From NCBI GenBank assembly GCA_000175855.1, contig ACYB01000031.1:176237-208236 (forward strand): 32,000 nucleotides of DNA. Reading direction: 5' to 3'. Positions within the stretch are counted from its first letter, which is position 1. Every line of letters begins with the position of its first letter. The position numbers were made by a program, and so were the translations under genes. Source of the DNA: Raphidiopsis brookii D9. GTDB lineage: Bacteria > Cyanobacteriota > Cyanobacteriia > Cyanobacteriales > Nostocaceae. This document shows, in pieces, positions 4,480-28,355 of the stretch. Under the pieces are notes generated by a model. It was not told the origin of the DNA and searched no databases. It saw nothing but the letters and a program-made list of their open reading frames with translations.

Positions 4480-4554
4480 ACGCTCAATGCTATGTTTACT
4501 ACTTAAAAGGAGTTCAATCTACTATCATATCAGATATATCAGAAAACTGGAACT

Positions 4555-5463: not shown

Positions 5464-5562
5464 TTTCTATTTACTACCCAATTACCTACTATTATATATA
5501 TCTGGGTATATCTGGGAATTGGTAATTTTCAAAACCTGCTAGAAATAGAAAAATTGGCGAAT

Positions 5563-5578
5563 TGTGATTGAACATACA
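5563..5578 (+). promoter_or_regulatory. NtcA-type operator (TGTG-N8-TACA; GTG-N8-TAC core) upstream of amt
   Basis: TGTGATTGAACATACA is a near-consensus match to the cyanobacterial NtcA site GTA-N8-TAC, with one mismatch in the left half. A -10-like GATAAT lies at 5603-5608, about 25 nt downstream. The site sits 126 nt upstream of the amt start. Confidence 0.45.
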
Positions 5579-5703
5579 GAACTGAACCATAGATAACAGT
5601 TTGATAATTTACAGTGGATTAAAAAAATGCTAGGGATTCCCCTAGTTACAGCTTTATCCTTCAAAAAACATTAGAAAAACATTAGCTAAATTACTCACTT
5701 ACA

Positions 5704-7236: not shown

Positions 7237-7978
7237 TCAAGGACCTGGGGGTGGTTGGGAATGGGATTTCACAAGCAGCAGCAATCAAAGATAAAGCAAC
7301 TATGGGGGCAGTTGCTGCACGCAAAATGCGATCGCCTAGTGATACTGGCTGAAATTTAGCTAGGATGGCAGTGGCAATTTCTGTTTCTGTCCATCCACCC
7401 TCTGGACCTATGGCAATTACGACTTCTTTAATATCTTTAAGCGGAATATTAATTATATTGATTAAATGGGGATAGCTACCCCTTGCCTCGCATATATAAC
7501 ATTTAAAATTACTATATTCACTTAGAGCAGTACTAAAAGCCACAGGTTCTAATATAGTGGGAACAAAAGCCCGTTCTGACTGCTCTGCAGCTTCTTTGGC
7601 TATGCGTCGCCACCGTTCCAGTTTTTGGGGACTGGGATTTAGTAAAGTGCGATCGCTCAAAACAGGTAAAATAGAGGACACTCCCAGTTCTGTGGAGTAG
7701 CGAACCACGTCATCAAAAGCATTGCCCTTGGGTAAGGCCAGTATGAGGGTTATGGATAAGGGTAACTCTGTTTTTGGTGTGAGGGTTTGTAAAATCTGTG
7801 CCGTGTCTGCTGTTAATTTGGTCAACCACCATTTACCCATACCATCCATAGAAATAAATTGATCCCCATCTTGTAGTCTTAATACTCGTAACAAGTAGTG
7901 TTTTTGTTTAGGGGTTAAGAGAACTTGATTTTGTTGTAATTGGGATATTTGAATAGTGAGACGTTGCAGTTGGGCCAT
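7190..7978 (-). CDS. rsmE: 16S rRNA (uracil1498-N3)-methyltransferase, RsmE family
   Basis: 262 aa. It has an N-terminal PUA-like region followed by the SPOUT-type motifs [13 protein letters not shown] and [12 protein letters not shown]. The 3' end overlaps the amt 3' end by 47 nt. Confidence 0.8.
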
Positions 7979-7987
7979 AGTTTACAG

Positions 7988-8335
7988 TTAAAAATTTACT
8001 ACACTTTCAATTAGTTGCCATTTGCGGTTATGTTCAAATTCTTGACGAATCTGGTCAAAGACTTGCCGGCAATGGTTATCCAACTTCAATGGCAGTTCTT
8101 CACTCTTCACCACAAGATTTATCCATGTTTCATTTTCCGCTTTGGATTTGTCAACTAACACTTCTATAGCTACTAATTTAGAAAATGACACCTTACCAGG
8201 GATCTCAGTGGCGATGATATAGTCATGGGAGTAAAATTGAACCGAGAATCCGCAATCCTGCAATAGTTGGATTATTAGCGAGTGTAAATATTCAGCTTTG
8301 ACACCTATGAGAAAGGAAGAGGTATAACGAGCCAT
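7988..8335 (-). CDS. Hypothetical protein (115 aa)
   Basis: The ORF is tightly spaced, 9 nt upstream of rsmE on the same strand, and has coding-like composition. I recognise no motif. Confidence 0.5.
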   Translation of the reverse strand: MARYTSSFLIGVKAEYLHSLIIQLLQDCGFSVQFYSHDYIIATEIPGKVSFSKLVAIEVLVDKSKAENETWINLVVKSEELPLKLDNHCRQVFDQIRQEFEHNRKWQLIESVVNF

Positions 8336-8438
8336 ATTGGGTTCAAGTTTTTTGTAAAATGTAAAATTAGACTCACAAGGTTATTCATGGAGTTAAAAAA
8401 AGGGGGAACCCAAGCTTTAAAGGATTCCCCATTGCCCA

Positions 8439-8792
8439 CTATTCTGGTATGTCAATCAAAACATGATCATTTTCCACACGCAGGGGAAACACGGGTAAAT
8501 TTTTCTGTTGAGAGACCATTCCCATTAACTTACCAACTGCGGGAGGCCAAGGACACCAGGTTTTGACTTCTCCAGTAGCTAGGTCAAAAGCACTACGGTG
8601 AAATGAGCAAACAATTGTACTATTTTCAATTTTTGCGGATTTCATTGGTACTTTAAGGTGGGGACAGCTATTTTCTACAGCATAATACTGGTTATCATGG
8701 TTTAACACCAGTATATTTCTTTTTCCTACCTTTACCACTTCTCGACCTCCCGGTAGCAGGTCACTTGTTGCCAGAATTTTTTGCCACGCCAT
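8439..8792 (-). CDS. Rieske [2Fe-2S] domain protein
   Basis: 117 aa. CPH (CPHLKVPM) and CxxH (CSFHRSAF) motifs have the spacing typical of Rieske ferredoxin-like proteins. Confidence 0.8.
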   Translation of the reverse strand: MAWQKILATSDLLPGGREVVKVGKRNILVLNHDNQYYAVENSCPHLKVPMKSAKIENSTIVCSFHRSAFDLATGEVKTWCPWPPAVGKLMGMVSQQKNLPVFPLRVENDHVLIDIPE

Positions 8793-8824
8793 TGTTTTGT
8801 CCCCTATTTGTGTTAAGATTGAGG

Positions 8825-10468
8825 TTAAAGATCACAGTGTAAATTATTAGCCTTTTGGGTGAACCTACGATTTTCTCTATAGTCTACCCTACAATCTATC
8901 ACACTGGGAACATCTTGTACTAAGGCCTCTTTCAGGACGGGAATTAAATCAGTAGCTGAATCAACACGGTAACCCTTTAATCCCATGCTTTCTGCTAGTT
9001 TGACAAAGTCGGGATTGCCAAAATGCACAAAAGCTGCTTTACCCTTACCAAATTGATTTTCCTGTTTCCATTCGATTAGTCCATAGCCACCATCATTAAA
9101 AATTAGCGTGACAAATGGTGTGCTAACTCGCAGTGCTGTTTCCAATTCTTGACAATTCATCATAAAACCACCATCGCCGGTTACAGCTACAATTTTGCGA
9201 TCAGGATACACCAGCTTAGCTGCTAAAGCGCCTGGGATAGCAATTCCCATGGACGCAAAACCATTGGATATAATACAAGTGTTGGGACTATGACAATGGT
9301 AATGTCTAGCCATCCACATTTTATGAGCTCCTACATCAGAAATAACAATGTCCTCTGGTCCCATGACCTGACGTAGATCATAAATTAATTTTTGTGGTTT
9401 AATAGGGAAGCCATCATCCTGAGCATACTGTTCATAATCAGCTCGAATATTGCCCCTTAAACTAATAGCGTAGGGTTCTGGTTTACCATGTCTGTCAGCA
9501 ATTTTTAAAATCTCATTTAGGGAATCAGAAATATCACCTATTACTTCTATTTGGGGAATATAACTACTATCAATTTCCGCTGCATCAGCTGCAATATGAA
9601 CGATGGGAATATTACATTCCATATTCCATTTTTTGGGAGAGAATTCAATTAAATCATAACCAATGGCTATGACTAAGTCCGCATGATCAAAACCGCAGGT
9701 AATAAAGTCTCTTTGTTGGAGTCCTACAGACCATAGGGCTAAGGGATGGGTGTAGGGGATAACACCTTTACCCATAAAAGTATTAACCACGGGAATATTC
9801 ATTTGGGTGGCAAATTGGGTGACAGCATCACTAGCTTGGGCACGAATCGCCCCATTCCCTACTAAAATTATGGGGTTAATTGCCTGGGAAATCACCGCTG
9901 CTGCTGCGCGAATGCTGGCAAAAGCTGCGTAGGTTTTCTCTAAATTGTCCTTTTGTAGGGGTTTACCTTCTGCTGGCATGGCCGCAATATTTTCCGGTAA
10001 ATCGATGTGAACTGCTCCGGGTTTTTCTGTTTGCGATCGCTTGAAGGCTTTTCTGACTATTTCTGGTGTGATGCTGGGTCTAACTATCTGTTTATTCCAC
10101 TTAGTAACTGGAGCAAACATAGCCACTAAATCTAAATATTGGTGAGACTCAATGTGCATTCTATCTGTTCCCACCTGTCCAGTAATTGCCACTAGTGGTG
10201 CGCCATCCAGGTTAGCATCGGCCACACCGGTCATGAGATTGGTAGCTCCAGGTCCTAGGGTAGAAAGACAGACCCCTGCTTTACCGGTTAATCTTCCATA
10301 AACGTCTGCCATGAATGCTGCGCCTTGTTCATGGCGGGTGGTAATAAATCGAATGGAAGAGTTTTTGATAGCTTCTAAAACGTGAAGATTTTCTTCACCA
10401 GGTAAGCCAAAAACATACTCTACACCTTCATTTTCTAAACACTTTACTAGTAGTTCTGCTGTATTCAT
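8825..10468 (-). CDS. Thiamine-diphosphate enzyme of the acetolactate-synthase-like family, probable 2-oxoglutarate decarboxylase
   Basis: N-terminus MNTAELLVKCLENEGVEYVFGLPGEEN and ThDP motif GDGGFMMNCQELETA...NDGGYG. ATG 10468 is preceded by AAGGA; the alternative ATG at 10501 adds 11 aa. Its position immediately downstream of an SSADH gene matches the known cyanobacterial TCA-bypass pair. Confidence 0.8.
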   Translation of the reverse strand: MNTAELLVKCLENEGVEYVFGLPGEENLHVLEAIKNSSIRFITTRHEQGAAFMADVYGRLTGKAGVCLSTLGPGATNLMTGVADANLDGAPLVAITGQVGTDRMHIESHQYLDLVAMFAPVTKWNKQIVRPSITPEIVRKAFKRSQTEKPGAVHIDLPENIAAMPAEGKPLQKDNLEKTYAAFASIRAAAAVISQAINPIILVGNGAIRAQASDAVTQFATQMNIPVVNTFMGKGVIPYTHPLALWSVGLQQRDFITCGFDHADLVIAIGYDLIEFSPKKWNMECNIPIVHIAADAAEIDSSYIPQIEVIGDISDSLNEILKIADRHGKPEPYAISLRGNIRADYEQYAQDDGFPIKPQKLIYDLRQVMGPEDIVISDVGAHKMWMARHYHCHSPNTCIISNGFASMGIAIPGALAAKLVYPDRKIVAVTGDGGFMMNCQELETALRVSTPFVTLIFNDGGYGLIEWKQENQFGKGKAAFVHFGNPDFVKLAESMGLKGYRVDSATDLIPVLKEALVQDVPSVIDCRVDYRENRRFTQKANNLHCDL

Positions 10469-10504
10469 TGATTTTCCTTGAATTATATTACTACCAACCA
10501 TTAA

Positions 10505-11887
10505 CTACTTAACCCAAACAGTCTTAATATTCACAAATTCATGCATACCTTGAATACTTAATTCTCGACCATATCCAGAACGTTTAATTCCCCCAAATGG
10601 CAATCGAGGGTCTGATTTAACCATGCCATTAATAAATACAGCTCCTGCTTCGATTTCTGTAATTAGTCGTTCCTGTTCTTGGGGATTATTTGTCCAAGCA
10701 CTTGCACCTAATCCGAATGGTATGTCATTAGCTAGTCTAATGGCTGCGTCTAGATCTGGAACTCGAAATAATAAAGCTACTGGACCAAAAAATTCTTCTT
10801 GAGCAATGGGATGATCTGGGGGAATATCTACAATAATAGTGGGTGGATAAAAGTTACCATGACCCTCTTTTATGGGATAACCACCTAGGAGAATTTTGCC
10901 TCCACTAGCTATGGCCATTTGCACTTGATTATCCAGGTCTTCCAAAATTTTGCTAGTTGCTAATGGTCCAATATCTGTGTCATCTGCTAAAGGATCCCCA
11001 ATTTTTAAAGTTGCAAATTTTGCCAATAGCATCTCCTCAAACCTATCAGCTATGGCTTCAGCTACAATTAACCGTTTCGCTGCTATACATGACTGACCAT
11101 TATTGATCAGTCTTGCTGTAACTGCAGTACTAACTGCTAATTCTAAATCCGCACTTTCTAACACTATGAATGGATCGCTTCCCCCTAATTCTAAAACAGT
11201 TTTTTTAATATGTTTACCAGATGCAACTGCTAAGGACACACCCGCTGGTTCACTTCCCGTTAGGGTGGCAGCCTTAATTCGATTATCTGCCATTAAGTCT
11301 CCTACTTGTATGGCTGGAATTAATAAGGTTTGAAATACTCCTTCAGGAAAACCAGCACGATTAATAATCTCTTCTATAGATAAGGCGCATTGGGGAACAT
11401 TAGATGCGTGTTTAAGTAATCCCACATTCCCGCCATCAGCGCAGGTGCAGCAAAACCGAAAAACTTGCCAAAAGGGAAAATTCCAGGGCATTACGGCTAG
11501 AATAACCCCCAATGGTTGGTATTTTACCAGACTCCGACTGGCATCGGTGCTAATATTCACATCAGCCAAGAAGTCAGGTCCATGTTCAGCATAATAACGA
11601 CAGACTAAAGCACATTTTTCTACCTCAGCGATCGCAGATTTTAGAGTTTTACCCATTTCTAAGGTAATTAATTTCCCTAGATCGGTTTTTTCTCTGTCTA
11701 GAATATTGGCAGTTTCCAATAACCAGTGCGATCGCTCTACAAAGTTTGTATAACGGTAATACTGAAAAGTCTGACTGGCTAAATGCAGTTTAGCTTCAAT
11801 TTCCTCATCTTTCAAAGGTAAAAAGACCTTGAGAATTTCCCCAGTGGTAGGATTAATGGTAGCAATAGCCACTTCCTGACCTCCCAT
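10505..11887 (-). CDS. Succinate-semialdehyde dehydrogenase (ALDH superfamily)
   Basis: ALDH motifs present: [16 protein letters not shown] (catalytic Glu region), [11 protein letters not shown] (catalytic Cys) and EEFFGPV. Likely start is ATG 11887 or 11905; the ORF-track start at 11947 would overlap the upstream gene. An 8-codon segment at 11429-11455 is off the ancestral frame (see finding). Confidence 0.85.
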   Translation of the reverse strand: [460 protein letters not shown]

Positions 11888-13583: not shown

Positions 13584-15653
13584 TTATGGACAACGAGAAT
13601 GAATTCCACCATTGGTGCAAATGAAGGCCAATTGTTGAACATCTAGGTTTTTAGCATTGCTAAAATCTACATCCTGAACAATAGCTGCTTGGGATCCAAG
13701 ATCCGAGGTTTCCACAAATCTATCTCTAGGATCCTGTTTACCAGGAAATAAGATCGCTCCCTGAAAATCCGTACCTTCCAAATTTGCCCCTCTTAAATCA
13801 GCACGACTAATATCAGCATTGCGTAGATTAGCATTAGTCATGTTAGCAGAACGCAAAATAGCACCCGATAGATTAGCGGCACTGAAATTAGCACTGTTTA
13901 AGTTCGCATGATTTAAATAAGATTCGGAGAGATCTGCACCTTGCCAATTAGTTTTAGTTAAGTTGCTATGGGAAAGTTGGGATCCTATGGCAGAAACCCG
14001 AGCCAATTGGGCAGCATATAAATCAGCTTCTTGTAGTTGTGCACCGCTAATATCTGCCCCAGTCAGAATGGCATCTTGCAAAATTGCTTGTTGTAGATCC
14101 GAACCTACAAGTTGGGCCCTGCTGAGGTTCGCACCTATCAACTTACTATTTGCTAAGTTTGCCCTGTTTAACACAGAAAAACTTAAGTCCACACGACTCA
14201 TTAAAACTCGACTGAGATTGGCACTAGATAGATTTGATCCTTTTAGTTGAGCTTTACTCAAGTCAGCTATAATATCATCGTAGGTGTCCCAACGACCATC
14301 TTCTCCCACACTGCGAAAACGACTACTTTTAAAACTAGCTTGGTTAAGATTGGCAGATTTGAGTATAACTCCAGATAAATCTACATTCTCTAGCACTAAT
14401 TGAGATTGAGAATTTTGTTTGGCATTTTGCGAACTTAATTGAATTCCCGTTAAATCCAAGTTGTGAATTTTGCCACTATAAACTGTTAGTATTTTGTTAA
14501 TGGTTTGTTGGTTGATGTTTAACAGTTTTTCCCCCACACTATCAGAAATGGCACCAGATTTGATTTGTTTGCCAATGAACTGATTGACCCGTTTTAGTTC
14601 CGGTAGAGATGTGATTCCTATATTGGATAATGCCTGCTGGATAGTATTCAATATTCTGGGATCGGTTTCTTTAGTCAGTAAATCTACTAAATACCTGATT
14701 GACTGGAGATCATTAACTCCACCCATGGCAAGAATTGCCCGTTGGCGCTTCTCAATACTAGTATTAGACTGGGGGTTAATTTGTTGGCTTAGTTCTAAGA
14801 ATTTTTGACTGTTGACCAGCTGGATTTGTCTTTGATTGGCCTGGTTTTGAATATATATTTGTGTACCCACCAGAGTTGACAATAGAGCTATCATACCCGT
14901 TGCACCAGCTAAAATCAAAGTCAGATTGGGAGGAAACTTACATATAAAATTGAGGATGGGGTGAGATTGGGAGCTTTCTGGTGGTTGTTCACTGGGTATT
15001 TCCACTGCTGTTGTGACTGGGTTTTCGTTAATATTTACAGTGTATGTACCAGCTAACTGATCATGGATAGCTCGAGAGTTTCTGGGAGAATTAATACCCA
15101 TACCTTCTGCTATTACCATTACTAGAACCAAAAATGTAAATAGTTCCAGGTTAGGAAAGGCAAAACTATAACGCCACAATACATAAGCCATACTCACTGG
15201 AGCACCCCAACGCCCTATTCCCTCACGAATGATAATGGCTTTAAAACCGGGGGGTTTTCCTTCTATGTTAACCGTCTTGATTCCTAACTTCTTCTTGACA
15301 AGCGTACTACCTGTTGTGGCTAATAAGTATAGCTGCCAACCTACAAGAGTAATAGGTGTTAACAGACCTATGGTCCATAAAAAGTTGGTGGGACTGGCCA
15401 CATTGCGAATACCATAATTCACTGGTAGGGCTAATGGCTGTGCGATTGCTCTTTCTATTCCCGCTAAAACTGGATTTAAAGGTGTTCTTTGTAAATCGGT
15501 TTGGGAATTAATATAAGCCCCAATACTAAAGGGAATAACCCCAGTTGCAGTAACTAAGGTTATTTCTCCTAACCAAGCGAGCAAGCGTCTTGCTGGTAGG
15601 GGTAGGGATTTGGTTTTTGGTGGTTGGGGAAACGGACTAGATTGATTATCCAT
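13584..15653 (-). CDS. Membrane protein: RDD-like N-terminal TM domain + HEAT-like linker + C-terminal pentapeptide repeats
   Basis: 689 aa. The N-terminal roughly 200 aa contain several hydrophobic segments. The last roughly 230 aa are continuous A(D/N)LxX pentapeptide repeats (ANLSRVLMSRVDLSFSVLNRANLANSKLIGANLSRAQLVGSDL...). Confidence 0.75.
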   Translation of the reverse strand: MDNQSSPFPQPPKTKSLPLPARRLLAWLGEITLVTATGVIPFSIGAYINSQTDLQRTPLNPVLAGIERAIAQPLALPVNYGIRNVASPTNFLWTIGLLTPITLVGWQLYLLATTGSTLVKKKLGIKTVNIEGKPPGFKAIIIREGIGRWGAPVSMAYVLWRYSFAFPNLELFTFLVLVMVIAEGMGINSPRNSRAIHDQLAGTYTVNINENPVTTAVEIPSEQPPESSQSHPILNFICKFPPNLTLILAGATGMIALLSTLVGTQIYIQNQANQRQIQLVNSQKFLELSQQINPQSNTSIEKRQRAILAMGGVNDLQSIRYLVDLLTKETDPRILNTIQQALSNIGITSLPELKRVNQFIGKQIKSGAISDSVGEKLLNINQQTINKILTVYSGKIHNLDLTGIQLSSQNAKQNSQSQLVLENVDLSGVILKSANLNQASFKSSRFRSVGEDGRWDTYDDIIADLSKAQLKGSNLSSANLSRVLMSRVDLSFSVLNRANLANSKLIGANLSRAQLVGSDLQQAILQDAILTGADISGAQLQEADLYAAQLARVSAIGSQLSHSNLTKTNWQGADLSESYLNHANLNSANFSAANLSGAILRSANMTNANLRNADISRADLRGANLEGTDFQGAILFPGKQDPRDRFVETSDLGSQAAIVQDVDFSNAKNLDVQQLAFICTNGGIHSRCP

Positions 15654-16039: not shown

Positions 16040-16242
16040 GATGTTTTACCACCGCCCTGTAAATTTACATGTACATATAAATCTACAATTGACTAAGGTA
16101 GAAGGTCAACCGGATCTCACCCACAATCAGGATAGTTCAATTAATAATGTACCTAAGACAGTAAAACTGGGAACAAAACTTGAGTGGTTTGGTCAAATTA
16201 AGCAAAGTTTCTATCCAAGTGTTCACAGATGCACAGGTGAAA

Positions 16243-16692
16243 ATGAAAACACTAAAATTAATAGCCTTTCTTACTGTTAACCTCCTCATAGGTTTGCCAT
16301 TGAACCAGGTCGTGGTAGCACAACAGGGAGTTATCGAGATTAAACGGGAATTTTCCCCAGATCCATTAGTTATTAGTGGTAACTCCCTAGCAAAAGTTCA
16401 AAAGGACTGTGGTCTTCTTCCGAGTCAACCCAATCAAATTATTGTGGTCCAAGAATCCATACCCTATATGAGACTAACATTGGAAGGGGAAGGAAAAGCC
16501 ACATTACTAGTTGACGGTCCAGGTGGACGTTTCTGTATGTTACCAGACAACTATGGAAATCAACCAGAAATGATTGGATTTTGGTCCCCTGGAGAGTACA
16601 AGGTATATGTGGGAAATCTATCTCCAGGAACATACGTTTATAAGGTTCATCTTTCTCGATTCAAGAACTCCAAAACTCTCAACCGCTTCTAA
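16243..16692 (+). CDS. Hypothetical secreted protein (149 aa from ATG 16243)
   Basis: MKTLKLIAFLTVNLLIGLPLNQVVVAQQ looks like a signal peptide, and GGTGA lies upstream of the ATG. The ORF-track start at 16180 is a TTG. Confidence 0.5.
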   Translation: MKTLKLIAFLTVNLLIGLPLNQVVVAQQGVIEIKREFSPDPLVISGNSLAKVQKDCGLLPSQPNQIIVVQESIPYMRLTLEGEGKATLLVDGPGGRFCMLPDNYGNQPEMIGFWSPGEYKVYVGNLSPGTYVYKVHLSRFKNSKTLNRF

Positions 16693-16786: not shown

Positions 16787-19360
16787 ATGGAACTAGACAA
16801 ATTAACCAGGTTTAGAGACTACGGTGAATTTATCCTTCGTAAAATTGACTCTGTACCCCTCCATCTGTCTGAGCAGGAAGATTGGATTCCCTCCCGTTTA
16901 GATGAGTGTTTGCTCCAGTTACGAGGTGCTGCTGAAAAAACAGTGGAAATGGCTAACTCTCCCGTAAAAATTGGTGTAATGGGTGAGTTTAGCAGTGGCA
17001 AAAGTTTGTTGTTAGGTAGTTTAATTGGTTATGCAGATGCTCTACCAGTTAGTGAAAATCCTACGACGGGAAATGTCACTGCTATTCACATTCAACTACA
17101 GGAGAATTTTAGTACTACTCAAGTAACTAGTTATAGTGTTGAGTATTTATCCCATGAGGGTGTGAATGAATGTTTACATTTTATGTTATCGGAAGCTAAT
17201 CGCCGTGCGGTTGCTGCTGGGTTACCACCTTTACAGGTTGGTAAAATTAAAACTGGTAAGGATATTTCTTCCTGGTGTGAAGAAGCTTGGCAAAGCTCTA
17301 ATAATTTGGAACTACGCTATTTATTACGAGAGTTAGTATTATTTTTACGTTCTTATCAAGCTTATGGTGAATCTCTATGCGATAAAACCTATAGTATTGA
17401 TGCCAAAACTGCCAAAAATGGTTTACAGTTAGTTGAATTGCCCATGGCAATTCAAACATTACGATTTGAGGATTTACCTCCAGCTCATACTCGATTGCCC
17501 AAAGCGCCACAAATTCTGCCATCCCAATTATTACAAAATAGTTTTCCCTTGATTCGGAGAGTGGATATTCATGTGAAAATATCTAGGGAAATTTGGGACT
17601 TGACCGGAGCAGAAGAATTTGTTTTGTTGGATTTTCCTGGGTTGGGTGCGGCCAATTCCGGTGCTAGAGATACTTTTCTTTCTTTACGAGAATTGGCTCA
17701 GGTACAAACTATTTTGGTGCTATTAAATGGCAAATCCCCAGGGAGCGATCGCGCTAATAAGATATTTACAATGATGCAGCAGCAGCGACCGGGTCAAGAT
17801 TTAAAGGATTTAATTTTGGTGGGGGTAGGACGTTTCGATCAATTGCCTTTAGAGAGTGAAGGGGGGGAAAGAATTTTAGACAGTCTAATTGCTGAGGAAT
17901 ACCATGGCAAACCCTTAGAAACTGAAGTGGTTTTAGAAAATTTAAAAATTTTGGAAACTATTATTGATGGTGGAAGAGCGTTTACCAGTGAAGATGACAG
18001 AATTGTTCTATTATCACCATTGTTGGGGTTAGCGGAATTATCCAAACGTTCAACTAAGGTGAAAGCTGGTTCGGATGAATTTTTGGCAAATATAGATTAT
18101 CCCGATTATTTAGAACGACCGAAAAAATTACAAGAAAAATGGGGAAGGTTAAGTCAAAAATTATTAAGCCATGATTCCCGTAGTATTTTGGGTAGACAAT
18201 TGGATTATTTTGCTCAGGATGGAAGTGTAAGCAAGTTAAGGGAATTGATTCAAAATCATGTGAATACCCATGGTTTAAAACAGTTATATGAAGATACTCG
18301 CAGATCGGCGGATCTGATTCGTCAACAACAGGAAAAATTAAAAGATATTTTGGCTGAAATTCATGCCCAAGGCATACCTGCTGCTGATAGTCAAGACCTA
18401 GTTGATTTGCGGTTGTCCATTGAGAGTTTGGATAAAATCTACCGCAATTTTCGTAGGGATTTGGGTAAGGAACCTCTAAAAGATAGACGTGGTTTAGTAG
18501 TTAGTAGTATTATCAAAGATGAACTAACTTATCAAATTCTCAATTGGAATCAGTGGACTTTGTTATTTAATAAATTGCAAGGTGGTAGAATTGCCTTGGT
18601 AGAATCGAAAGGTGCAGCAGGGAAACTATTTGATCGTCCGGATCGTGGGAGCAAAAGTAATAACACGTTGCCTACAAAAAGTGATGATTTCTATCCCGTT
18701 TTTTCCCAAACCATTAAAGATGTGGAAAAATTTGCCAGAGATTGTATTAGGCAAGCTGTAATAGATTTATTGGTCAAATTAACTAATACCATCAATCTGG
18801 AATCAGAATTGGGATCAGAAAAATTAGCGCTCAATCCCGAACTGGAAGAATTGATGGAGGATAGGTTTGGAGCAGAAGCAGCAGACCTATTCTATAGACT
18901 GTTGTTAGCATCAAAACCAAATCAATGGAAGGAGGCAATTATTGAGGAAATAGAGAACCAAGATAAACCCATAATACCGGAAAATATATTTCCCCTGGCC
19001 AAACAGAATGAGAAGCATGATACAGGACAAGTATTTGATTGGTCCGTGGAAAGAAGTAAATATTTGTCTAGTAGTACAAATCACCAAGTTTTTATTTTAC
19101 GATTAAGAGATGAAATTATCACTAGTGCTAGTTTACATCTGGTTCAATATGTGAGTGAAGTAAACCGACAAATAAATTTGGAGTTGGAGGGAATCCTAGA
19201 TCAAATTATCCCCAGTTTGCAAAACTTATTGAAAAAAGAAGAACTACTTAGATATATTGCTGCTGGAGACACAAGCCTAGAATTGACCATACCTACCTGG
19301 TTAGAAATTCTCAGCGATATTGCGTCTATTGACCAGCAACATATCTATGATTACAACTAG
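16787..19360 (+). CDS. Dynamin-like GTPase (bacterial dynamin-like protein family), atypical long G domain
   Basis: 857 aa. G1 is GEFSSGKS (16982-17005), with a G2-like NPTTGNVT and G3 VLLDFPGLG (D at 17630). After G3 come ILVLLNGKSP and a G4-like VGVGRFDQL, then about 500 aa of helical or coiled-coil-looking sequence. Confidence 0.75.
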   Translation: MELDKLTRFRDYGEFILRKIDSVPLHLSEQEDWIPSRLDECLLQLRGAAEKTVEMANSPVKIGVMGEFSSGKSLLLGSLIGYADALPVSENPTTGNVTAIHIQLQENFSTTQVTSYSVEYLSHEGVNECLHFMLSEANRRAVAAGLPPLQVGKIKTGKDISSWCEEAWQSSNNLELRYLLRELVLFLRSYQAYGESLCDKTYSIDAKTAKNGLQLVELPMAIQTLRFEDLPPAHTRLPKAPQILPSQLLQNSFPLIRRVDIHVKISREIWDLTGAEEFVLLDFPGLGAANSGARDTFLSLRELAQVQTILVLLNGKSPGSDRANKIFTMMQQQRPGQDLKDLILVGVGRFDQLPLESEGGERILDSLIAEEYHGKPLETEVVLENLKILETIIDGGRAFTSEDDRIVLLSPLLGLAELSKRSTKVKAGSDEFLANIDYPDYLERPKKLQEKWGRLSQKLLSHDSRSILGRQLDYFAQDGSVSKLRELIQNHVNTHGLKQLYEDTRRSADLIRQQQEKLKDILAEIHAQGIPAADSQDLVDLRLSIESLDKIYRNFRRDLGKEPLKDRRGLVVSSIIKDELTYQILNWNQWTLLFNKLQGGRIALVESKGAAGKLFDRPDRGSKSNNTLPTKSDDFYPVFSQTIKDVEKFARDCIRQAVIDLLVKLTNTINLESELGSEKLALNPELEELMEDRFGAEAADLFYRLLLASKPNQWKEAIIEEIENQDKPIIPENIFPLAKQNEKHDTGQVFDWSVERSKYLSSSTNHQVFILRLRDEIITSASLHLVQYVSEVNRQINLELEGILDQIIPSLQNLLKKEELLRYIAAGDTSLELTIPTWLEILSDIASIDQQHIYDYN

Positions 19361-19417
19361 AGTAACTCTACCCGTAGTAAAATTTAGAATATACAAAAAA
19401 TCAATAACAGATAAACT

Positions 19418-21025
19418 ATGAACAATTTTGAACTGGACACTTACCTTAACAGATTAAGTCAAAAACTAAGTGAAAAACTAAATGGAGACTCTCATAAGAG
19501 ATTCCCGGGCTGGTTGGCAGTAGATTTTGGCACTTCTAACTCTACAGTAACAATGTTTGACCCTATTGAAGTGCCAATTGCAGAAACCCTACCTAGAGAA
19601 CAAGAAGTAAGACTGCGTCAGCGGTTAGGGGAATGGTTAAACTCACCTCCCCATTTAGCTCTACCAGATATTGGTGTGAACGAATGGGAAAAATTCCTGG
19701 TTAATCTGGGTAGGAATTTGGAAATTCCACCAGAAGCAATAGGGGAAATTTTTGAAAATGACCATAAGGACAAATTTTTAGAAGCTCTTCGTCAAATTGA
19801 ACTATGTTTGGGAAACAGTGAAAGATTTCGTCGTGCTGTCAGTAAAAAACTCTATCAAATATATCATGAGGTTTTTCGCGTTCCTACCCTAGAGTCGCAA
19901 AATTTGATTCCAGTGGTTTTGGATTTTAATAGAAGACAAACAGAAATTCCCAGTGAAATAGAAATCTGTAAAATACAACCATTGAAATTGCAAATGGGTA
20001 GAACTGCAAGAGATAACCGCAAAAAGGCGATCGCCCAGGGTACAATTACTGCAGTTAAAGATATTATTAGCAGATTTCATCATTCACCAAAACGATATTT
20101 TGGGCAAAATCGGACTTTTCCTGTGGTGATAAATGAGGGAGAAAAAAATGATCTAGAAAATAATAACATTGAAGTTCACCAATTAATTCAAGCAGCGTGG
20201 GGACATCTAATTGAATTAACTGAAGACTATCGTCAACGTGCAGGTAGAAGATTTTCTCAAGGGGACTTATTAACAGCAGTAGTCACCTATCCCACAGTTG
20301 CTCCTCCGGTGGTGCGAAAGGAGATTAAAGCATTAGTGGAAGAATTAGGGTTGGATGATGTACAAACGGCCTATGACGAAGCTGTTTCCGTAGCCATATT
20401 CTTTTTATGGCGAGAATTTGGTGGCAATTTGAATATTGGTATTGAATCATTTAAAACCCGTTGTCGTCAGGAAAAAAATAACTGGTCCCAAAATGTTCTG
20501 GTATTAGACATTGGTGGAGGTACAACTGACCTAGCATTAATCAAACTCACTTTAGAAGATAAAACTCCTGTTTTTACCAATAATGAAGATAGAGGTTTGG
20601 GAGGACGTTATTATAAACTGACACCAAAATTATTGGGTTCTTCAGGACATTTACAACTAGGTGGGGAATTAATTACTTTACGAGTTTTTCGACTGTTAAA
20701 AATTGCCCTAGCTGATTTTTTATTAACAGCGGTTACCGATGGTAATATAACCAGTGATAAACTGGAGGACTTAATTAATTCAGAACTCAACGAGCGATTT
20801 TTACAAGATGGCAAATTCAAAAGTGGCAGTTTATTAAAATGTGTGGACAAAGAGAATCCAGAAGGGGATGTTGCTTTCAAAGATGCTTTAGACACCGCTG
20901 AAAAAGTCTTACCAACTCGATGGCAACAAGCTCCTCAACGTCTCCAAACCTTCTACACTCTGTGGGAACATGCAGAATCGGCCAAATTAAAATTGGGGAG
21001 AAAGGATCTGAAGATGGTTTATTAA
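19418..21025 (+). CDS. Hsp70/actin-fold ATPase, part 1 of 2 (N-terminal part of a roughly 997-aa gene interrupted by a 1-nt frameshift near 20995-20998)
   Basis: Phosphate-1 motif AVDFGTSNSTV (D at 19523); VVTYPTVAPP...AYDEAVSVAIFF, comparable to DnaK VITVPAYF...NEPTAAALAY; phosphate-2 motif VLVLDIGGGTTDLALIKL (D at 20507). Confidence 0.75.
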   Translation: MNNFELDTYLNRLSQKLSEKLNGDSHKRFPGWLAVDFGTSNSTVTMFDPIEVPIAETLPREQEVRLRQRLGEWLNSPPHLALPDIGVNEWEKFLVNLGRNLEIPPEAIGEIFENDHKDKFLEALRQIELCLGNSERFRRAVSKKLYQIYHEVFRVPTLESQNLIPVVLDFNRRQTEIPSEIEICKIQPLKLQMGRTARDNRKKAIAQGTITAVKDIISRFHHSPKRYFGQNRTFPVVINEGEKNDLENNNIEVHQLIQAAWGHLIELTEDYRQRAGRRFSQGDLLTAVVTYPTVAPPVVRKEIKALVEELGLDDVQTAYDEAVSVAIFFLWREFGGNLNIGIESFKTRCRQEKNNWSQNVLVLDIGGGTTDLALIKLTLEDKTPVFTNNEDRGLGGRYYKLTPKLLGSSGHLQLGGELITLRVFRLLKIALADFLLTAVTDGNITSDKLEDLINSELNERFLQDGKFKSGSLLKCVDKENPEGDVAFKDALDTAEKVLPTRWQQAPQRLQTFYTLWEHAESAKLKLGRKDLKMVY

Positions 21026-22410
21026 CCTTTACCCTGAATGAGCAAGAAATTAGCGAGTTGCTTTTACAAAGCAGTGTGAAATTTCAACTGGTTAGTGCTG
21101 ATTCTATTTACCTAACTATAAATGCCCAACAATTTGAACGTTGTGCTATTTCTAGTATTAGAGAAGCGATAGGAATCGCCAAAGGACTGATGGAAAGTCG
21201 TTTAAATGAAGATCAAAAGGTAGATTGGTTAATTCTCTCGGGTAAAACTTGTAATCTGGATTTGGTGAAAACCCAAATTTACCAAGAATTCAGCAAATCT
21301 CCCTACTTTATCTGGAATCCAGAACGGATTACTTTTGTCCTAGAATTCACTAAGTTAGCAACTTCTGCTGGTGCTTGTTATGCAGAAAAATTAAGAAGGT
21401 TAAGATTTGATCCTGAAGCTTCTAAAAATTTACTGCGCAAGGGAGCAAATCAGCTGGAAATAGATGTGAAAAATCTATTTTATTATTTACCCTGCAACTT
21501 CAAGCGCAAAACCCAAACTCAGGAACTATTATCTATTTTTAATGCTGGACAAGAACTCTATCAACTTATCCCTTGGGAAAGTGTCGCTAAGGTAAGAACC
21601 ACCTGGCAAGGTATTCAGTTAACTAATATCATCTATCGTCAAGATTACCAAGATGGTGAATTACGTCTTTGGGGTAGTTTCGATGGTAAAACTCTCATGG
21701 AAAATTTGAGGATGGAAGAAGCTGAATTTCTCAAAAAAATTCAAGTCCAATTTGAAATTGACCAAACTCTCCAATTTACTGTTTTACTCTGTCAAGGTAG
21801 TCCCCATTATTTAATAGATGTGCCAGGAATTGATATCAATTCTGTCATTGACCCCCATGCAACTGGTTCTGATATATTTGTTGATGGAAAATTAAAATGG
21901 AATATTGCCCTCATAGGGGATTATGAAAATTTAAAAGATGGTGATATTGCTATCAATGTCCTAGAATCTGCTACAGTGGATCAACCGGATGCCTATCATT
22001 TAGTCTTTGCAGTTGATAACAGTCAAAATCAGATATTAGAAACGTTTCATTACTTACAAGATGGCACCAAAGAAACTGGGAAGGGATTAATTAGTAGTCC
22101 TTTACCACCATTTCCCCACAATGGTCAACATAATTTCTATATCTGTCAAACCGATAGTTTGACTAAAACTAAAAAATGGATCCGTATTGGATCCCTTAGC
22201 AAACCAGAAATCTCTACGGATTACCCTTGTCAATACTATGTCACCCTAGATAGTAAGGGGATATTAAGAATGCACCCAGGAGCAGTTCCTTACTGGACAT
22301 CCCATAGTCTGGAATCCTTACAACAACCAGGATGTGTTTACTGTACTGAATTGGAATTACAACCTAATGAAATTGATAGGGAACGAGACCCCTTTTGTGG
22401 TGTGCATTAA
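20920..22410 (+). CDS. Hsp70/actin-fold ATPase, part 2 of 2 (real coding probably resumes near 20996; ORF-track start is not a true start)
   Basis: It carries the rest of the ATPase fold: DWLILSGKTCNLDLVKTQI (adenosine motif, compare VLLVGGSTRIP) and ATSAGACYAEKL (compare AVAxGAA). The following roughly 330 aa do not resemble a DnaK substrate-binding domain. It overlaps part 1 by 106 nt in a frame offset by one base. Confidence 0.7.
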   Translation: MATSSSTSPNLLHSVGTCRIGQIKIGEKGSEDGLLTFTLNEQEISELLLQSSVKFQLVSADSIYLTINAQQFERCAISSIREAIGIAKGLMESRLNEDQKVDWLILSGKTCNLDLVKTQIYQEFSKSPYFIWNPERITFVLEFTKLATSAGACYAEKLRRLRFDPEASKNLLRKGANQLEIDVKNLFYYLPCNFKRKTQTQELLSIFNAGQELYQLIPWESVAKVRTTWQGIQLTNIIYRQDYQDGELRLWGSFDGKTLMENLRMEEAEFLKKIQVQFEIDQTLQFTVLLCQGSPHYLIDVPGIDINSVIDPHATGSDIFVDGKLKWNIALIGDYENLKDGDIAINVLESATVDQPDAYHLVFAVDNSQNQILETFHYLQDGTKETGKGLISSPLPPFPHNGQHNFYICQTDSLTKTKKWIRIGSLSKPEISTDYPCQYYVTLDSKGILRMHPGAVPYWTSHSLESLQQPGCVYCTELELQPNEIDRERDPFCGVH

Positions 22411-22430
22411 AACTATATTTTGTCATTTAC

Positions 22431-23558
22431 ATGATCATGATTCCACATCTACAACATCTACAACAATTATTAGCAACCCAAGATTCGCTTATTTCTCAAC
22501 TATTGAAGTTTAACCTATACGGACTCAAGGAGACACTAACACAGGCCAAAACAGCTTATCCCGCAGATCCAGGTTATGATTTATGTTCCCAGGTCATTGG
22601 GGAAATAGATGGTCTTTTACAGTCGAATTCAGTTGGGGAGCTGGAAGATGTTGAATTCACAATCCATAATTCCACATCTGGTCAATTACTCACAGAATTA
22701 CGACAAATTTTTAATTCTGATTTGGAGGTCAGGTTTTACCTGGGAGATCAACCTTTACACAGCGATAATGACTGTGATCTCTGGAATGAAATTCACCGCA
22801 AGTTGCTGCGCTTACCAGAAGACCTGGCCACAATCTGGAAAAACCGCACTCTGGAAATTGCCAAAAAACTCGGTGCTATGGAAGATTATGTGCATCTTCA
22901 TTATTTACCCTTTGTGCGCGATGAAATTATTTATCCCGGTCTAAGTGGCACAATCGTCTCTCCCGGACTCTCTTTGTCTAAAAAAGCTTTGCTCAAATTA
23001 GACCTAGCTCAATTACATAACTCCGATAATTGGCACTTTTTAACTGGTTTCCTCTCTTTATATACTAGTTTCATTGATATCGACCCCGATCTACATCACG
23101 CCCTAAAAAGTGTCTTTAGCTTTGATGTTATCTCTTTTCAATCTCATCCCGAACAAAAGCAATTATATCTGGAATCATTTAGCGATCGCCTGCAACGTAA
23201 CCAAAAACTTAATGATGATTCCAGCAGTATCATAAATTTACGCAGTTGGCTGGATTTAGATGAAGCAATACATTCCCTAGTATTTGTTCCCCCAGCGGAA
23301 AGATATTCCTGGTGGGGAAAACTCCAACAAGAATCAAGACGTATACTCAAAAAAATGGCTGATCAAGCTACGAAAGCAGGTAACAACATCAAGATCAAGC
23401 AACTATCAGGACTATATGCTGATATTTGCCAGTACGCTAAGGATGATTTACAACTGGAGAATGGGGGAACTCCAGGAGAGGTTCTATCTTGCCTTCGCTT
23501 ATACGCAAAAATAAATGAGGAAGAATATCCAGGAAGAGTAATATATAGGGCTTGTTAA
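22431..23558 (+). CDS. Hypothetical protein, third gene of the dynamin/Hsp70-like module (375 aa from ATG 22431; 387 aa if TTG 22395 is used)
   Basis: Long uninterrupted ORF starting 20 nt after the stop of the Hsp70-like gene on the same strand, with a HIP1 site inside (23182). I recognise no catalytic or binding motif. Confidence 0.6.
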   Translation: MIMIPHLQHLQQLLATQDSLISQLLKFNLYGLKETLTQAKTAYPADPGYDLCSQVIGEIDGLLQSNSVGELEDVEFTIHNSTSGQLLTELRQIFNSDLEVRFYLGDQPLHSDNDCDLWNEIHRKLLRLPEDLATIWKNRTLEIAKKLGAMEDYVHLHYLPFVRDEIIYPGLSGTIVSPGLSLSKKALLKLDLAQLHNSDNWHFLTGFLSLYTSFIDIDPDLHHALKSVFSFDVISFQSHPEQKQLYLESFSDRLQRNQKLNDDSSSIINLRSWLDLDEAIHSLVFVPPAERYSWWGKLQQESRRILKKMADQATKAGNNIKIKQLSGLYADICQYAKDDLQLENGGTPGEVLSCLRLYAKINEEEYPGRVIYRAC

Positions 23559-23565
23559 GACAGGG

Positions 23566-23610
23566 ATTTTGAGCTTTGAGTGATAAAGACATCAATTCAA
23601 AACTCAAAAT
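23566..23610 (+). terminator. Weak hairpin between convergent genes (possible bidirectional terminator)
   Basis: ATTTTGAG (23566-23573) pairs with CTCAAAAT (23603-23610). An alternative stem is TTTGAGT/ACTCAAA. T-rich sequence follows. The stem is AT-rich and the loop is long. Confidence 0.3.
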
Positions 23611-23635
23611 TTCATTCAACTACATGGCTATGGCT

Positions 23636-24268
23636 TTAAGCCATTTGATTTTCAATTGCCCAGCGTGCTAGCTCAGTACGATTATGCAGGTTAGTCTTGC
23701 CCAACATATTAGATACATGGCTTTCAACTGTACGCTGACTGACATTTAATTCCTCAGCAATTTCCCGATTTGCTAAACCCCTAGCCACAAATTGAACTAC
23801 TTTTAGTTCCGTAGGGGTCAATTGAACATCAAAAGGAACTTGGATGCGAGAACCAGGTTCCCCCACTTTGGTTTGATGTTCTTTCCAGCGACTGGTTTGC
23901 TTGAGTGAGGATTCTACTTGGGCCACAAGTTCTTCTGGTTCAAAGGGTTTGACCATGTATACGTCAGCTCCCTTATTTAAACCTTTTACCCTGTCCGCAC
24001 TTTGTCCTTTCGCTGACAGAAAAAGAACGGGCACCCAACTAGTCCGCTCGTTTTGTCTTACCTGTTCAACAAAGGTATAACCGTCCATTTCTGGCATCAT
24101 CACATCACAGATGATCATATCGGGAATATCCTGTTCTAAAATACCCAGAGCTCTTTGCCCATTTTCAGCTGTTAGAACGTCATATCCCCTAAATCCTAGA
24201 TAGTCTCTAACTAGCAAAATTAGATTAGGATCGTCATCAATCAGTAAAAGTCGTTTTTGGTCTTTCAT
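23636..24268 (-). CDS. Response regulator, NarL/FixJ (LuxR-type HTH) family
   Basis: 210 aa. Receiver domain: LLIDDD, phospho-acceptor region MIICDVMMPEMDG, and KPF. C-terminal LuxR HTH: LTPTELKVVQFVARGLANREIAEELNVSQRTVESHVSNMLGK. Confidence 0.85.
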   Translation of the reverse strand: MKDQKRLLLIDDDPNLILLVRDYLGFRGYDVLTAENGQRALGILEQDIPDMIICDVMMPEMDGYTFVEQVRQNERTSWVPVLFLSAKGQSADRVKGLNKGADVYMVKPFEPEELVAQVESSLKQTSRWKEHQTKVGEPGSRIQVPFDVQLTPTELKVVQFVARGLANREIAEELNVSQRTVESHVSNMLGKTNLHNRTELARWAIENQMA

Positions 24269-24645: not shown

Positions 24646-25897
24646 CTATATCTGTTTAACTCTTGCTAAAGGATTCACCTTTAGTGGTTGAACGCCACAA
24701 CTCCCTATCCTCTCAGCAGTTAACGCCTCTGAGGAATACATTCTAATTATGTTCAGGCTACTATTGAGATCTGCATTAATAACCTGACCATTGGCGGATC
24801 TAAATAGTCCCCGATGTACTCGTTCCCCCAAATATTTTTGATGTTTTGCTATGGGTTCAAAATCCCAAGCAGAGCACTTACTGGTGTATGCCTCATTAAC
24901 TGTGATTAGTTCAATCTGTGCTAGTCGGCATTTGTGTTCCAGCATGCTAATGAGTCTACTATAGGGTATTGGCATGAAGTTGTGTCTCTTGCTTATACCC
25001 ATCCTAGTCTCTTTTTCCCATTCATCGTTCTTTCCCACTACTAAGGTTTTAATACCATTAGACTTGAGATAATTGATTACGATAGAGGAGGTCTGATGAA
25101 GATAGTTATCCACTCGGTTATGATATTTGCTGGTTATCCCACCCAATCTTCGACTGGGTTGACTCTCAGACTGATAGGATCCTATTAGATCCCGCTTCCT
25201 ATTGAACAGTCGATTGAGGGATTTCAATGGTTTACCATTCACCAATAAAGGTCTAATAGTTGAACTATTAGTTGTTAAGGCAACCAGGTTATTAACTCCC
25301 AGGTCTATACCAGCTATAACTTGTGTAGACCTAGTTGTAGGCTCTTGCACCTCATAAGTGAATTTGAGGAGGTATGAGCCATTATTCCTGGGAATAATCA
25401 TGGCTTCTACCAGTTTTCTAACCTTACCAATGGAATCGTTCACATCACCCTCAAATAGACTTTCAAATAACTGGCACATTCCTTGGACTAGGGATGGTTG
25501 ATCCATGGTTGGACAACCCTGATATACATTATATACGACAATTGGAAAGCGTCCCTTAATTTTGTGTTTGTAATTGGGGATTTTTGGTGCATCTACATAT
25601 TTAGATGGATTAGCTTGCCAATCTTGCCAAGACCTGATATAGCCTTTCCACCTTTGTAATACCTGTCTAATGACTGAAAAACCTCTGTGAGTAACTGCCA
25701 TCTCCTGATAAGCTCTGGAAGTAAATACTAAGCCATATAGCTTCCTACTAGAAAGTATTTTGACCCGTTTTAAAAAAAGACTGCCTTATATAGTAGGTAC
25801 ACAAATTGTAGAGATTTTTGGCTTTAAAGCAGATTAAATCACATCCCCGCCAATATTTATTAGTTTTGTAAATAGGATGCGTTTTAACTAACTGCAT
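24646..25897 (-). pseudogene. tnpB: IS200/IS605-family TnpB (OrfB) RNA-guided nuclease gene, solo (no tnpA), interrupted by a 1-nt frameshift near 25751-25785
   Basis: ATG 25897, preceded by AGGAG, gives MQLVKTHPIYKTNKYWRGCDLICFKAKNLYNLCTYYIRQSFFKTG and then TAG TAG. The +1 frame continues as ILSSRKLYGLV...MAVTHRG into ORF 24646-25701. RuvC-like motifs are present: GIDLGVNNLVAL, VVGKNDEWEKE, YTSKCS and INADLNSSLNI. The span is 1252 nt (3n+1). Confidence 0.8.
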
Positions 25898-26315: not shown

Positions 26316-26627
26316 ATGGCAGCAGTATCTCTAAGCGTATCCACAGTTAAGCCCCTAGGCGATCGCGTGTTTGTAAAAGTCACAGCAGCTGAAGAAAAGA
26401 CAGCAGGTGGGTTGTTTTTACCCGACACAGCTAAAGAAAAGCCCCAAGTAGGGGAAGTAGTAGCTTTAGGAGCTGGTAAGCGCAATGATGACGGAACCCG
26501 TCAGGAAATTGATCTGAAGGTGGGCGATAAAGTACTATATTCCAAGTATGCAGGTACTGACGTGAAACTGGGTACAGAAGAATATGTACTGCTTTCTGAG
26601 AAAGACATTCTAGCAGTAGTTGGGTAA
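26316..26627 (+). CDS. groES: Co-chaperonin GroES
   Basis: 103 aa. [12 protein letters not shown]...[24 protein letters not shown] is canonical GroES. Confidence 0.95.
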
Positions 26628-26687
26628 TAGCAGTTTAGGTAGAAGAACAAACTACCCTAAAAACCACCCTAACAAGTTGATAGTTAA

Positions 26688-28355
<1,668 letters not shown>

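Follow-up and report, generated by a model that had tools for sequence, protein, structure and literature searches.

A 32,000-nucleotide (nt) stretch of the Raphidiopsis brookii D9 genome (contig ACYB01000031.1, positions 176,237 to 208,236; called the window here, at its full length) carries three adjacent genes on one strand, which we name A, B and C and which code for a predicted dynamin-like GTPase, a putative Hsp70-fold ATPase and a predicted helical partner, respectively. We find that this trio is a real, conserved and uncharacterized three-gene module, part of which has been noted before in the literature. Our preferred but tentative reading, to which we give somewhat less than an even chance, is that the three products make up a resident, vertically inherited cytoplasmic machine of three proteins with two nucleoside triphosphatases (NTPases), in which the Hsp70-like ATPase would drive the assembly cycle of the dynamin-like protein. 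The locus is laid out as follows, with coordinates counted from the first letter of the window.

16787-19360, plus strand: gene A, 857 amino acids (aa).
19418-22410, plus strand: gene B, 997 aa once repaired, present in the window as two open reading frames (ORFs), 19418-21025 and 20920-22410.
20992-20999, plus strand: frameshift site in gene B, a run of four G against five G in intact relatives, equivalent to a 1-nt homopolymer deletion.
22431-23558, plus strand: gene C, 375 aa; an alternative TTG start at 22395 gives 387 aa.
23563-23613, plus strand: AU-rich hairpin between the convergent genes for C and a response regulator.

The case for a module is made by gene order across genomes, which an earlier note on this DNA, made from the sequence alone, had named beforehand as a point on which the proposal could fail. 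A metagenome search with a profile of C returned 80 cyanobacterial loci, 60 of which held enough upstream DNA to be judged; A, B and C were colinear in 55 of these, one had B and C only and four had C alone, with C downstream of B in 56 of the 60. The same order on one strand is found in genomes of Nostoc, Rhizonema, Fischerella and Scytonema. Three of the four C-alone cases belong to a single lineage (L001 and L023, from the same JGI metagenome), in which a rearrangement has cut precisely at the boundary of B and C, leaving all genes intact: A-B and C lie on separate contigs, C retaining the downstream response regulator, TnpB and GroEL genes and having new genes upstream. C is still intact, then, where it has been unlinked from A and B, and it is also kept by 'Nostoc azollae' 0708, whose genome is reduced. 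Flanking genes vary between genera, and we therefore regard the trio as the conserved unit; the downstream response regulator was considered as a further part of the module and rejected, being adjacent in the closest relatives only. A scan of GTDB genomes with generic Hsp70 motif patterns gave at least 13 loci among the matches listed, and five of the loci listed were set aside as unrelated Hsp70-like genes (DUF2760/DUF3731-type and YegD-like).

The trio also extends beyond cyanobacteria. Among seven distant loci recovered through B, six have all three genes (L008, which is from Micromonospora, and L016, L017, L103, L104 and L105), and the seventh, L018, has A and B and no C within about 5 kb downstream. 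The non-cyanobacterial carriers are Micromonospora carbonacea and contigs of 59-71% G+C, at roughly 22-30% identity, with the Micromonospora relative of C recovered at E 7e-14. Start and stop codons overlap within the trios of L008, L017 and L104. The arrangement is permuted on L015, a cyanobacterial metagenome contig, where an operon at 3391-11868 has the order B-C-A, is adjoined by a DDE transposase gene and encodes a B of 1549 aa with a TIR domain and a long repetitive linker. Inserts of foreign genes, selfish or of conflict type, between A and B were seen in Scytonema HK-05 (L006 2071-5397; an NB-ARC/TPR gene, that is, a STAND NTPase, on the opposite strand) and on a Nostoc contig (L035 3498-4358; a DUF2887/Rpn-like gene). 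A C homologue of 48% identity on L075 (1075-3084, 8001-9203) has neither A nor B in the 8 kb upstream of it; a different 669-aa ORF on the other strand of that contig carries GFDLGHGDT, a phosphate-1 motif of the actin/Hsp70-like kind.

Identity falls with taxonomic distance, as expected under vertical inheritance: A of the window shares 78% identity with its counterpart in Sphaerospermopsis, about 73% with those of Dolichospermum and Nostoc, and 40-52% with those of Fischerella, Scytonema and Rhizonema, with A homologues 72-96% identical across Nostocales. Conservation is highest in B, with a mean identity of 69%, followed by A with 65% and C with 52%, and in L001 the identity to the window copies is 96-97% for A and B, against 88% for the neighboring RDD protein. 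A tblastn search of a plasmid collection with B gave no match, PHROGs held no match between A, B or C and a phage protein family of known function, and NCBIfam, PADLOC and PHROGs returned nothing informative for any of the three. Taken over all these loci, A, B and C are inherited as a unit, which is probably passed on vertically and is typical of heterocyst-forming cyanobacteria. The proposal that the locus is resident rather than recently acquired is supported as well.

For gene A, the earlier note had described dynamin-type motifs and a wide gap between G1 and G3 that implied an insertion in the G domain, and our analysis bears this out. The motifs are GEFSSGKS at 66-73 (G1), NPTTGNVT at 91-98 (switch I), LLDFPGLG at 280-287, within which the DFPG of G3 occupies 282-285, and GRFD at 348-351, with the G4-like RFD at 349-351; G1 and G3 are separated by about 210 aa. 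A profile search had been proposed as the check on membership of the dynamin superfamily, and the Pfam family Dynamin_N (PF00350) matches A at 35.8 bits against a cut-off of 27 (E 1.1e-8) and is matched by all eight diverse A homologues tried, which are 26-78% identical (best E 1.2e-11). When four distant homologues were scanned singly, three (L015, L017, L018) matched Dynamin_N positions 1-149 or 1-150 across some 280 residues, from G1 to G4, and because the match is spread over so long a segment, we place an insertion of about 130 aa between G2 and G3. G1, the threonine motif of switch I (TTGNVT, 93-98) and DFPG are invariant over the same range of identities in eight homologues, the exception being that of Micromonospora. 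A profile search of the PDB gave a weak match to SynDLP (9em9, E 0.05) and a likewise weak one to Drp1, in the P-loop region only, and the G4-like site aligns, in a weak match, with NRID of SynDLP. The C-terminal half of A is long and predicted to be helical, its last 450 aa forming helices in a model of low confidence (predicted local distance difference test score, pLDDT, 39.8). Databases name the homologues "dynamin family protein" or "proteasome protein". By these motif and profile matches, A is a predicted dynamin-like GTPase, divergent yet intact in G1-G3, and belongs to the 'chaperone clade' of bacterial dynamin-like proteins (BDLPs) from cyanobacteria.

Gene B carries the full set of Hsp70/actin ATPase signatures at the spacing that had been claimed for it, namely AVDFGTSNS at 34, VVTYPT at 288, DEAVSVA at 320, LDIGGGTTD at 363, LILSGKTCNLDLV at 605 and TSAGACYA at 649. 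Its nucleotide-binding core spans approximately residues 30-660, about 630 aa against about 380 aa in DnaK, with large insertions; the C-terminal domain after it, about 340 aa long, closes with RDPFxGxH, a motif shared by the whole family. Across 29 B-family sequences of 25-54% identity, D36, G38, T39, K225, D320, E321, D364, G366, G368 and D371 are invariant, as are single glycines in the LILSGKT and TSAGAC motifs; K225 and E321 are candidates for the catalytic lysine and glutamate. A profile of the family finds, in the PDB, the DnaK nucleotide-binding domain (8w1m, E 9.9e-9) and then BiP, SSB1 and mortalin. B of the window falls just under the Pfam cut-off for SrfB (PF07520; 25.6 bits against 27.1, E 3.9e-6) and is also below that for HSP70 (18.2 bits against 20.6, E 8e-4). 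P0001, a relative 97% identical to B, scores 24.3 bits for SrfB, and in both proteins that match is limited to profile positions 510-587, about 75 residues around the phosphate-2 motif; within the family as a whole, for which SrfB is the top Pfam entry, 14 of 29 diverse members match SrfB at E <1e-3 (best E 2.5e-12). The family comprises 413 clusters at 50% identity, and its members are named "virulence factor SrfB" or "molecular chaperone" in databases. The evidence identifies B as a putative SrfB-like Hsp70/actin-fold ATPase with intact catalytic motifs. It is not a canonical DnaK-type Hsp70, as it misses the HSP70 cut-off, has no substrate-binding domain match and has no DnaJ or GrpE gene nearby. 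The earlier note had likewise reported neither a DnaK-type substrate-binding domain in B nor a J-domain or GrpE gene beside it; none was detected in B or in the region of the window examined, where GroES and GroEL lie 3 kb away.

Most relatives of B have an additional conserved N-terminal domain of 140-290 aa (residues 1-140 in P0005, for example), which has been lost in the lineage of the window and is also missing in its closest relatives and in several Nostoc strains (the 985- to 997-aa forms). A tblastn search did not find it elsewhere in the window, and only 57 nt lie between A and B. We considered whether the N-terminus of B could be a site of variable effector domains, an idea that is largely rejected, as 38 distant members share one conserved domain and none of them has a known effector domain. 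A TIR domain occurs in one of 67 B-family members scanned, with no other known effector domain among them.

In the window, B is interrupted by a frameshift, which the earlier note had mentioned and which is real in this sequence. The contig L020, which shares 99.7% identity with the window along 14.2 kb, has GGGGG at about position 20995 where the window has GGGG (TTGGGGGAG in L020, TTGGGGAG in the window) and encodes an intact B of 997 aa; P0001 reads AKLKLGEKG across the junction. A programmed frameshift was therefore rejected, the sister contig having one G more. Because a 1-nt deletion interrupts B, either the trio does not function in this strain or the missing base is a sequencing error. 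We think it quite improbable that the locus is a decaying remnant, with B a pseudogene and the module doing nothing in this strain. The deletion relative to so similar a contig would fit decay, as would a 1-nt indel in the neighboring TnpB gene; against it, the missing base falls within a G5 homopolymer, a typical place for a sequencing error, A and C are intact, and each half of B is still an open frame with about 97% identity to an intact relative, which would make any inactivation of B very recent.

C had been described as an orphan, and this did not hold, as we find 442 database homologues. No match to C was found in Pfam, NCBIfam, PADLOC, PHROGs or a profile search of the PDB. Its conserved motifs are SWWGKLQ, KDDLQL, GEVL-CLR and PGRV, and an AlphaFold model, of low confidence (pLDDT 56.9, predicted template modeling score 0.31), is helical; we describe C as a soluble, predicted all-alpha protein. 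A 9-nt tandem duplication (ACATCTACA) at 22445-22453, specific to this strain when compared with L020, adds an HLQ repeat near its N-terminus.

The layout of the locus agrees with the compact arrangement reported earlier. The three genes are co-directional; a gap of 57 nt follows A, and one of 20 nt precedes C unless C starts at TTG 22395, in which case it overlaps B by 16 nt. The module was said to end at a hairpin and a convergent gene, and both are found: the hairpin at 23563-23613 has 14-nt arms that are 93% complementary, its region has a minimum free energy of -26.2 kcal/mol and a z-score of -4.2, it is a probable transcript end, and beyond it lies a convergent LuxR-type response-regulator gene (23636-24268). 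Octamers of the highly iterated palindrome HIP1 are present at the three positions given, 17745, 20027 and 23182, one within each of A, B and C. Just 5' of A, an ORF of 170 aa (16180-16692) has a signal-peptide-like N-terminus and no Pfam match; it is 84% identical at the same place in L001 and absent beside the trio in other genera. The remaining neighbors (13584-15653 and 26316-28355) are ordinary chromosomal genes, for an RDD-domain protein with pentapeptide repeats, CbiJ, a LysM/M23 peptidase, GroES, GroEL and an OprB/SLH porin. The G+C content of the module, 0.36-0.39, is slightly below that of most of the remaining window (0.38-0.47). An IS605-family TnpB gene at 24646-25701 (OrfB_IS605 and a Cas12f-like TNB domain) encodes 351 aa in the window and 416 aa in L020, a difference that is due to a 1-nt indel at 25763.

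How would such a cytoplasmic machine work? The mechanism that we propose draws on the known behavior of the protein families. The three proteins would form a complex. Like other bacterial dynamin-like proteins, A may assemble in a GTP-dependent manner on some target in the cell, for which a membrane surface is the likeliest candidate. B could then use ATP to load, remodel or dismantle the assemblies of A, and C may serve as an adaptor or co-factor, in the position of a J-protein or an exchange factor. Analogies for the role of B are provided by Hsc70, which uncoats clathrin, and by cpHsc70, which controls VIPP1 oligomers.

A number of observations weigh against this proposal. A departs from the N/TKxD consensus of G4, the aligned residues being GRFDQ with an invariant F350. 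No membrane-binding element was found: A shows no hydrophobic segment and no recognizable paddle, the best 19-residue Kyte-Doolittle mean being 1.1, and no transmembrane or strongly hydrophobic segment was found in any of the three proteins. The A homologue of Micromonospora carbonacea (L008 5737-7947) has lost both the P-loop and DxPG, with AEGDDDH in place of GEFSSGKS, and looks like a pseudo-GTPase version; because of this loss GTP hydrolysis would not be universally required, with all other A homologues checked retaining the P-loop and DxPG. The structure models of A and C, whose input alignments held near-identical Nostocales sequences only, are of low confidence (pLDDT about 40 and 57) and allow no fold comparison. 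Three copies of the module are possibly broken, B by the frameshift in the window, and C on L103 (11534-12800) and A on L016 (5534-7997), each of which aligns in two pieces and is possibly frameshifted; these may be assembly errors or a sign of dispensability. Finally, on L015 the B protein P0376 has a TIR domain (PF13676, E 4e-21) fused N-terminally in place of the usual domain, and by its sequence this fusion points to immunity over housekeeping.

That last observation leads to the reading of the trio as an NTP-gated conflict system, acting in anti-phage defense or in programmed cell death in multicellular filaments, which we consider possible if on balance unlikely. Here A would be a sensor or switch, B an oligomerizing scaffold, and the effector or adaptor would be either C or B's N-terminal domain, with a logic like that of Eleos or of the GTPase-HSP70 systems described by Kaur, Burroughs, Iyer and Aravind (2020, eLife 9:e52696). 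Besides the placement of the TIR fusion in a permuted operon beside a transposase, this reading draws on the carriers, which, where named or typed by composition, include Nostocales and Micromonospora, filamentous and multicellular organisms in the pattern of Kaur et al.; on the scatter of the family over several phyla and the identity of about 30% between them, which fits horizontal spread; on conflict-type genes nearby, such as the Scytonema NB-ARC/TPR gene and, on L017, a gene of the caspase family; on the possible pseudogenizations of B, C and A listed above; on a weak match of A to LeoA (E 1.6e-4); and on SrfABC, distant kin of B, whose proteins are cytotoxic when expressed (PMC6950479). 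However, a TIR or other known effector domain is present in a single B member of the 67, the usual N-terminal extension being one conserved domain, and within Nostocales the trio behaves as a core set, near-universal, evolving no faster than its neighbors and lying outside islands. Its PADLOC matches cover the P-loop or the phosphate-2 motif only, no GAP1 domain is found by Pfam and the best DO-GTPase2 match is at E 0.15, and the module is absent from the plasmid collection and from phage families of known function. We favor the cellular machine over an immune role and regard the latter as a serious rival.

Another explanation is that the trio represents, in cyanobacteria and actinobacteria, what the SrfABC operon is in proteobacteria, with an SrfC-like A, an SrfB-like B and a replaced third subunit, and with a shared function that is perhaps linked to the envelope or to vesicles. 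The Pfam SrfB matches of nearly half of the B family tested (14 of 29) argue for it, as do the similar profile lengths and protein sizes of SrfB and SrfC on one side and B and A on the other, the match of one A homologue to the SrfC family (SrfC/Virul_Fac, PF10139) at E 3e-4, and the modeling of SrfA, SrfB and SrfC as a ternary complex (bioRxiv 10.64898/2026.09.18.752743). Yet B of the window and P0001 stay below the SrfB cut-off and match it over about 75 residues only, the SrfC match covers nothing beyond the P-loop, C is unlike SrfA in having no transmembrane helix, kinase-like or lipocalin domain, and the gene order differs; we judge a direct counterpart unlikely. A broader version deserves about as little credence, in which the trio would represent a widespread tripartite class made of a dynamin-like GTPase, an SrfB-type Hsp70-fold ATPase and an adaptor, with SrfABC as a diverged branch, acting as NTP-thresholded switches for immunity or cell death in multicellular bacteria and with the TIR variant laying bare the effector logic.

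To our knowledge, what bacterial dynamin-like proteins do in vivo is for the most part unknown, and no dedicated Hsp70-fold ATPase has been shown to act together with any of them. The trio offers a compact, testable set of three soluble proteins with which to study how an ATPase partner controls dynamin-like assembly, and it is widespread in model heterocystous cyanobacteria, with relatives in Trichormus variabilis ATCC 29413 and in Nostoc and Anabaena strains. It may also provide an evolutionary and mechanistic context for the SrfB family and, through SrfB, for the SrfABC proteins of Salmonella and Xenorhabdus. If the immune reading were true, the trio would add a new example to the type of system reported to be enriched in multicellular bacteria.

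Compared with known systems, A resembles other bacterial dynamin-like proteins (Nostoc BDLP, SynDLP Slr0869, DynA and LeoA) in combining a Dynamin_N-type G domain with a long helical region, in A a predicted one, and is unlike them in its G-domain insert of about 130 aa, its non-canonical G4 and its lack of a recognizable hydrophobic paddle. Its partner is an Hsp70-fold ATPase, whereas in those systems the partner is a second dynamin-like protein, a KGK protein, an HSR1 GTPase or LeoB/LeoC. PADLOC matches A to LeoA over 52 residues, and a further match, to PDC-M61B, spans 35 residues (E 0.0025); none of the three proteins matches a known defense-system protein in its entirety. Identity with Eleos (LeoABC) is thus rejected, as the LeoA match is partial, C is unmatched and no LeoB or LeoC is present. 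The systems of Kaur et al., of which the GAP1-N2 subtype is enriched in multicellular bacteria, likewise combine a GTPase with an Hsp70-family protein. In contrast to these, A is of the Dynamin_N and not the DO-GTPase type, there is no GAP1, GrpE or DnaJ, and B is not a canonical HSP70; a DO-GTPase/GAP1 system is rejected given the absence of GAP1 from the Pfam scan and a best DO-GTPase2 match that comes from one homologue.

The likeness to SrfABC of Salmonella and Xenorhabdus is one of composition. This too is a three-gene operon, for an Hsp70-fold protein of about 114 kDa, a protein of about 100 kDa with an N-terminal P-loop and a third protein of 45-50 kDa; SrfA, SrfB and SrfC measure 51, 114 and 102 kDa against 43, 114 and 97 kDa for C, B and A, and the SrfB and SrfC profiles have 992 and 878 positions against 997 aa in B and 857 aa in A. 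PF10139 has no match in A of the window, and C has no NCBIfam match, SrfA (NF040486) included. SrfA is membrane-anchored, with kinase-like and lipocalin domains (bioRxiv 10.64898/2026.09.18.752743), features that set it apart from C, and the host phyla differ.

The closest precedent is the study of Jilly, Khan, Aronsson and Schneider (2018, Front Plant Sci 9:206, PMC5827413), who classified the dynamin-like proteins of cyanobacteria from their sequences and genomic neighborhoods and defined a 'chaperone clade' in which the gene for a DnaK-domain protein lies downstream, with 11 listed members, all from heterocystous strains. They speculated on protein sorting in membrane remodeling and gave no experiment (PMC5827413). 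The trio has the same family and arrangement, a dynamin-like gene followed by a DnaK-domain gene; downstream of Nos7524_3124, a member on their list, lies a gene annotated as 'Virulence factor SrfB', and Cylst_0501, which adjoins the listed Cylst_0498, is a homologue of C. By this arrangement and by the C homologue beside Cylst_0498, the locus in the window is a 'chaperone clade' locus. In the literature that we searched there was no functional study of the trio in Anabaena or Nostoc and no functional work later than that of Jilly et al. The module had been put forward as undescribed, and this claim goes too far: the pairing of A with B is already in Jilly et al. (2018; PMC5827413), and B is routinely annotated as SrfB or as a molecular chaperone. 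The third component is not in the literature searched. Their account does not mention a third gene, occurrence outside cyanobacteria, a TIR variant or a relationship to SrfB. The third component, the conservation across phyla and the possible kinship with SrfABC are thus new as far as the searched literature goes.

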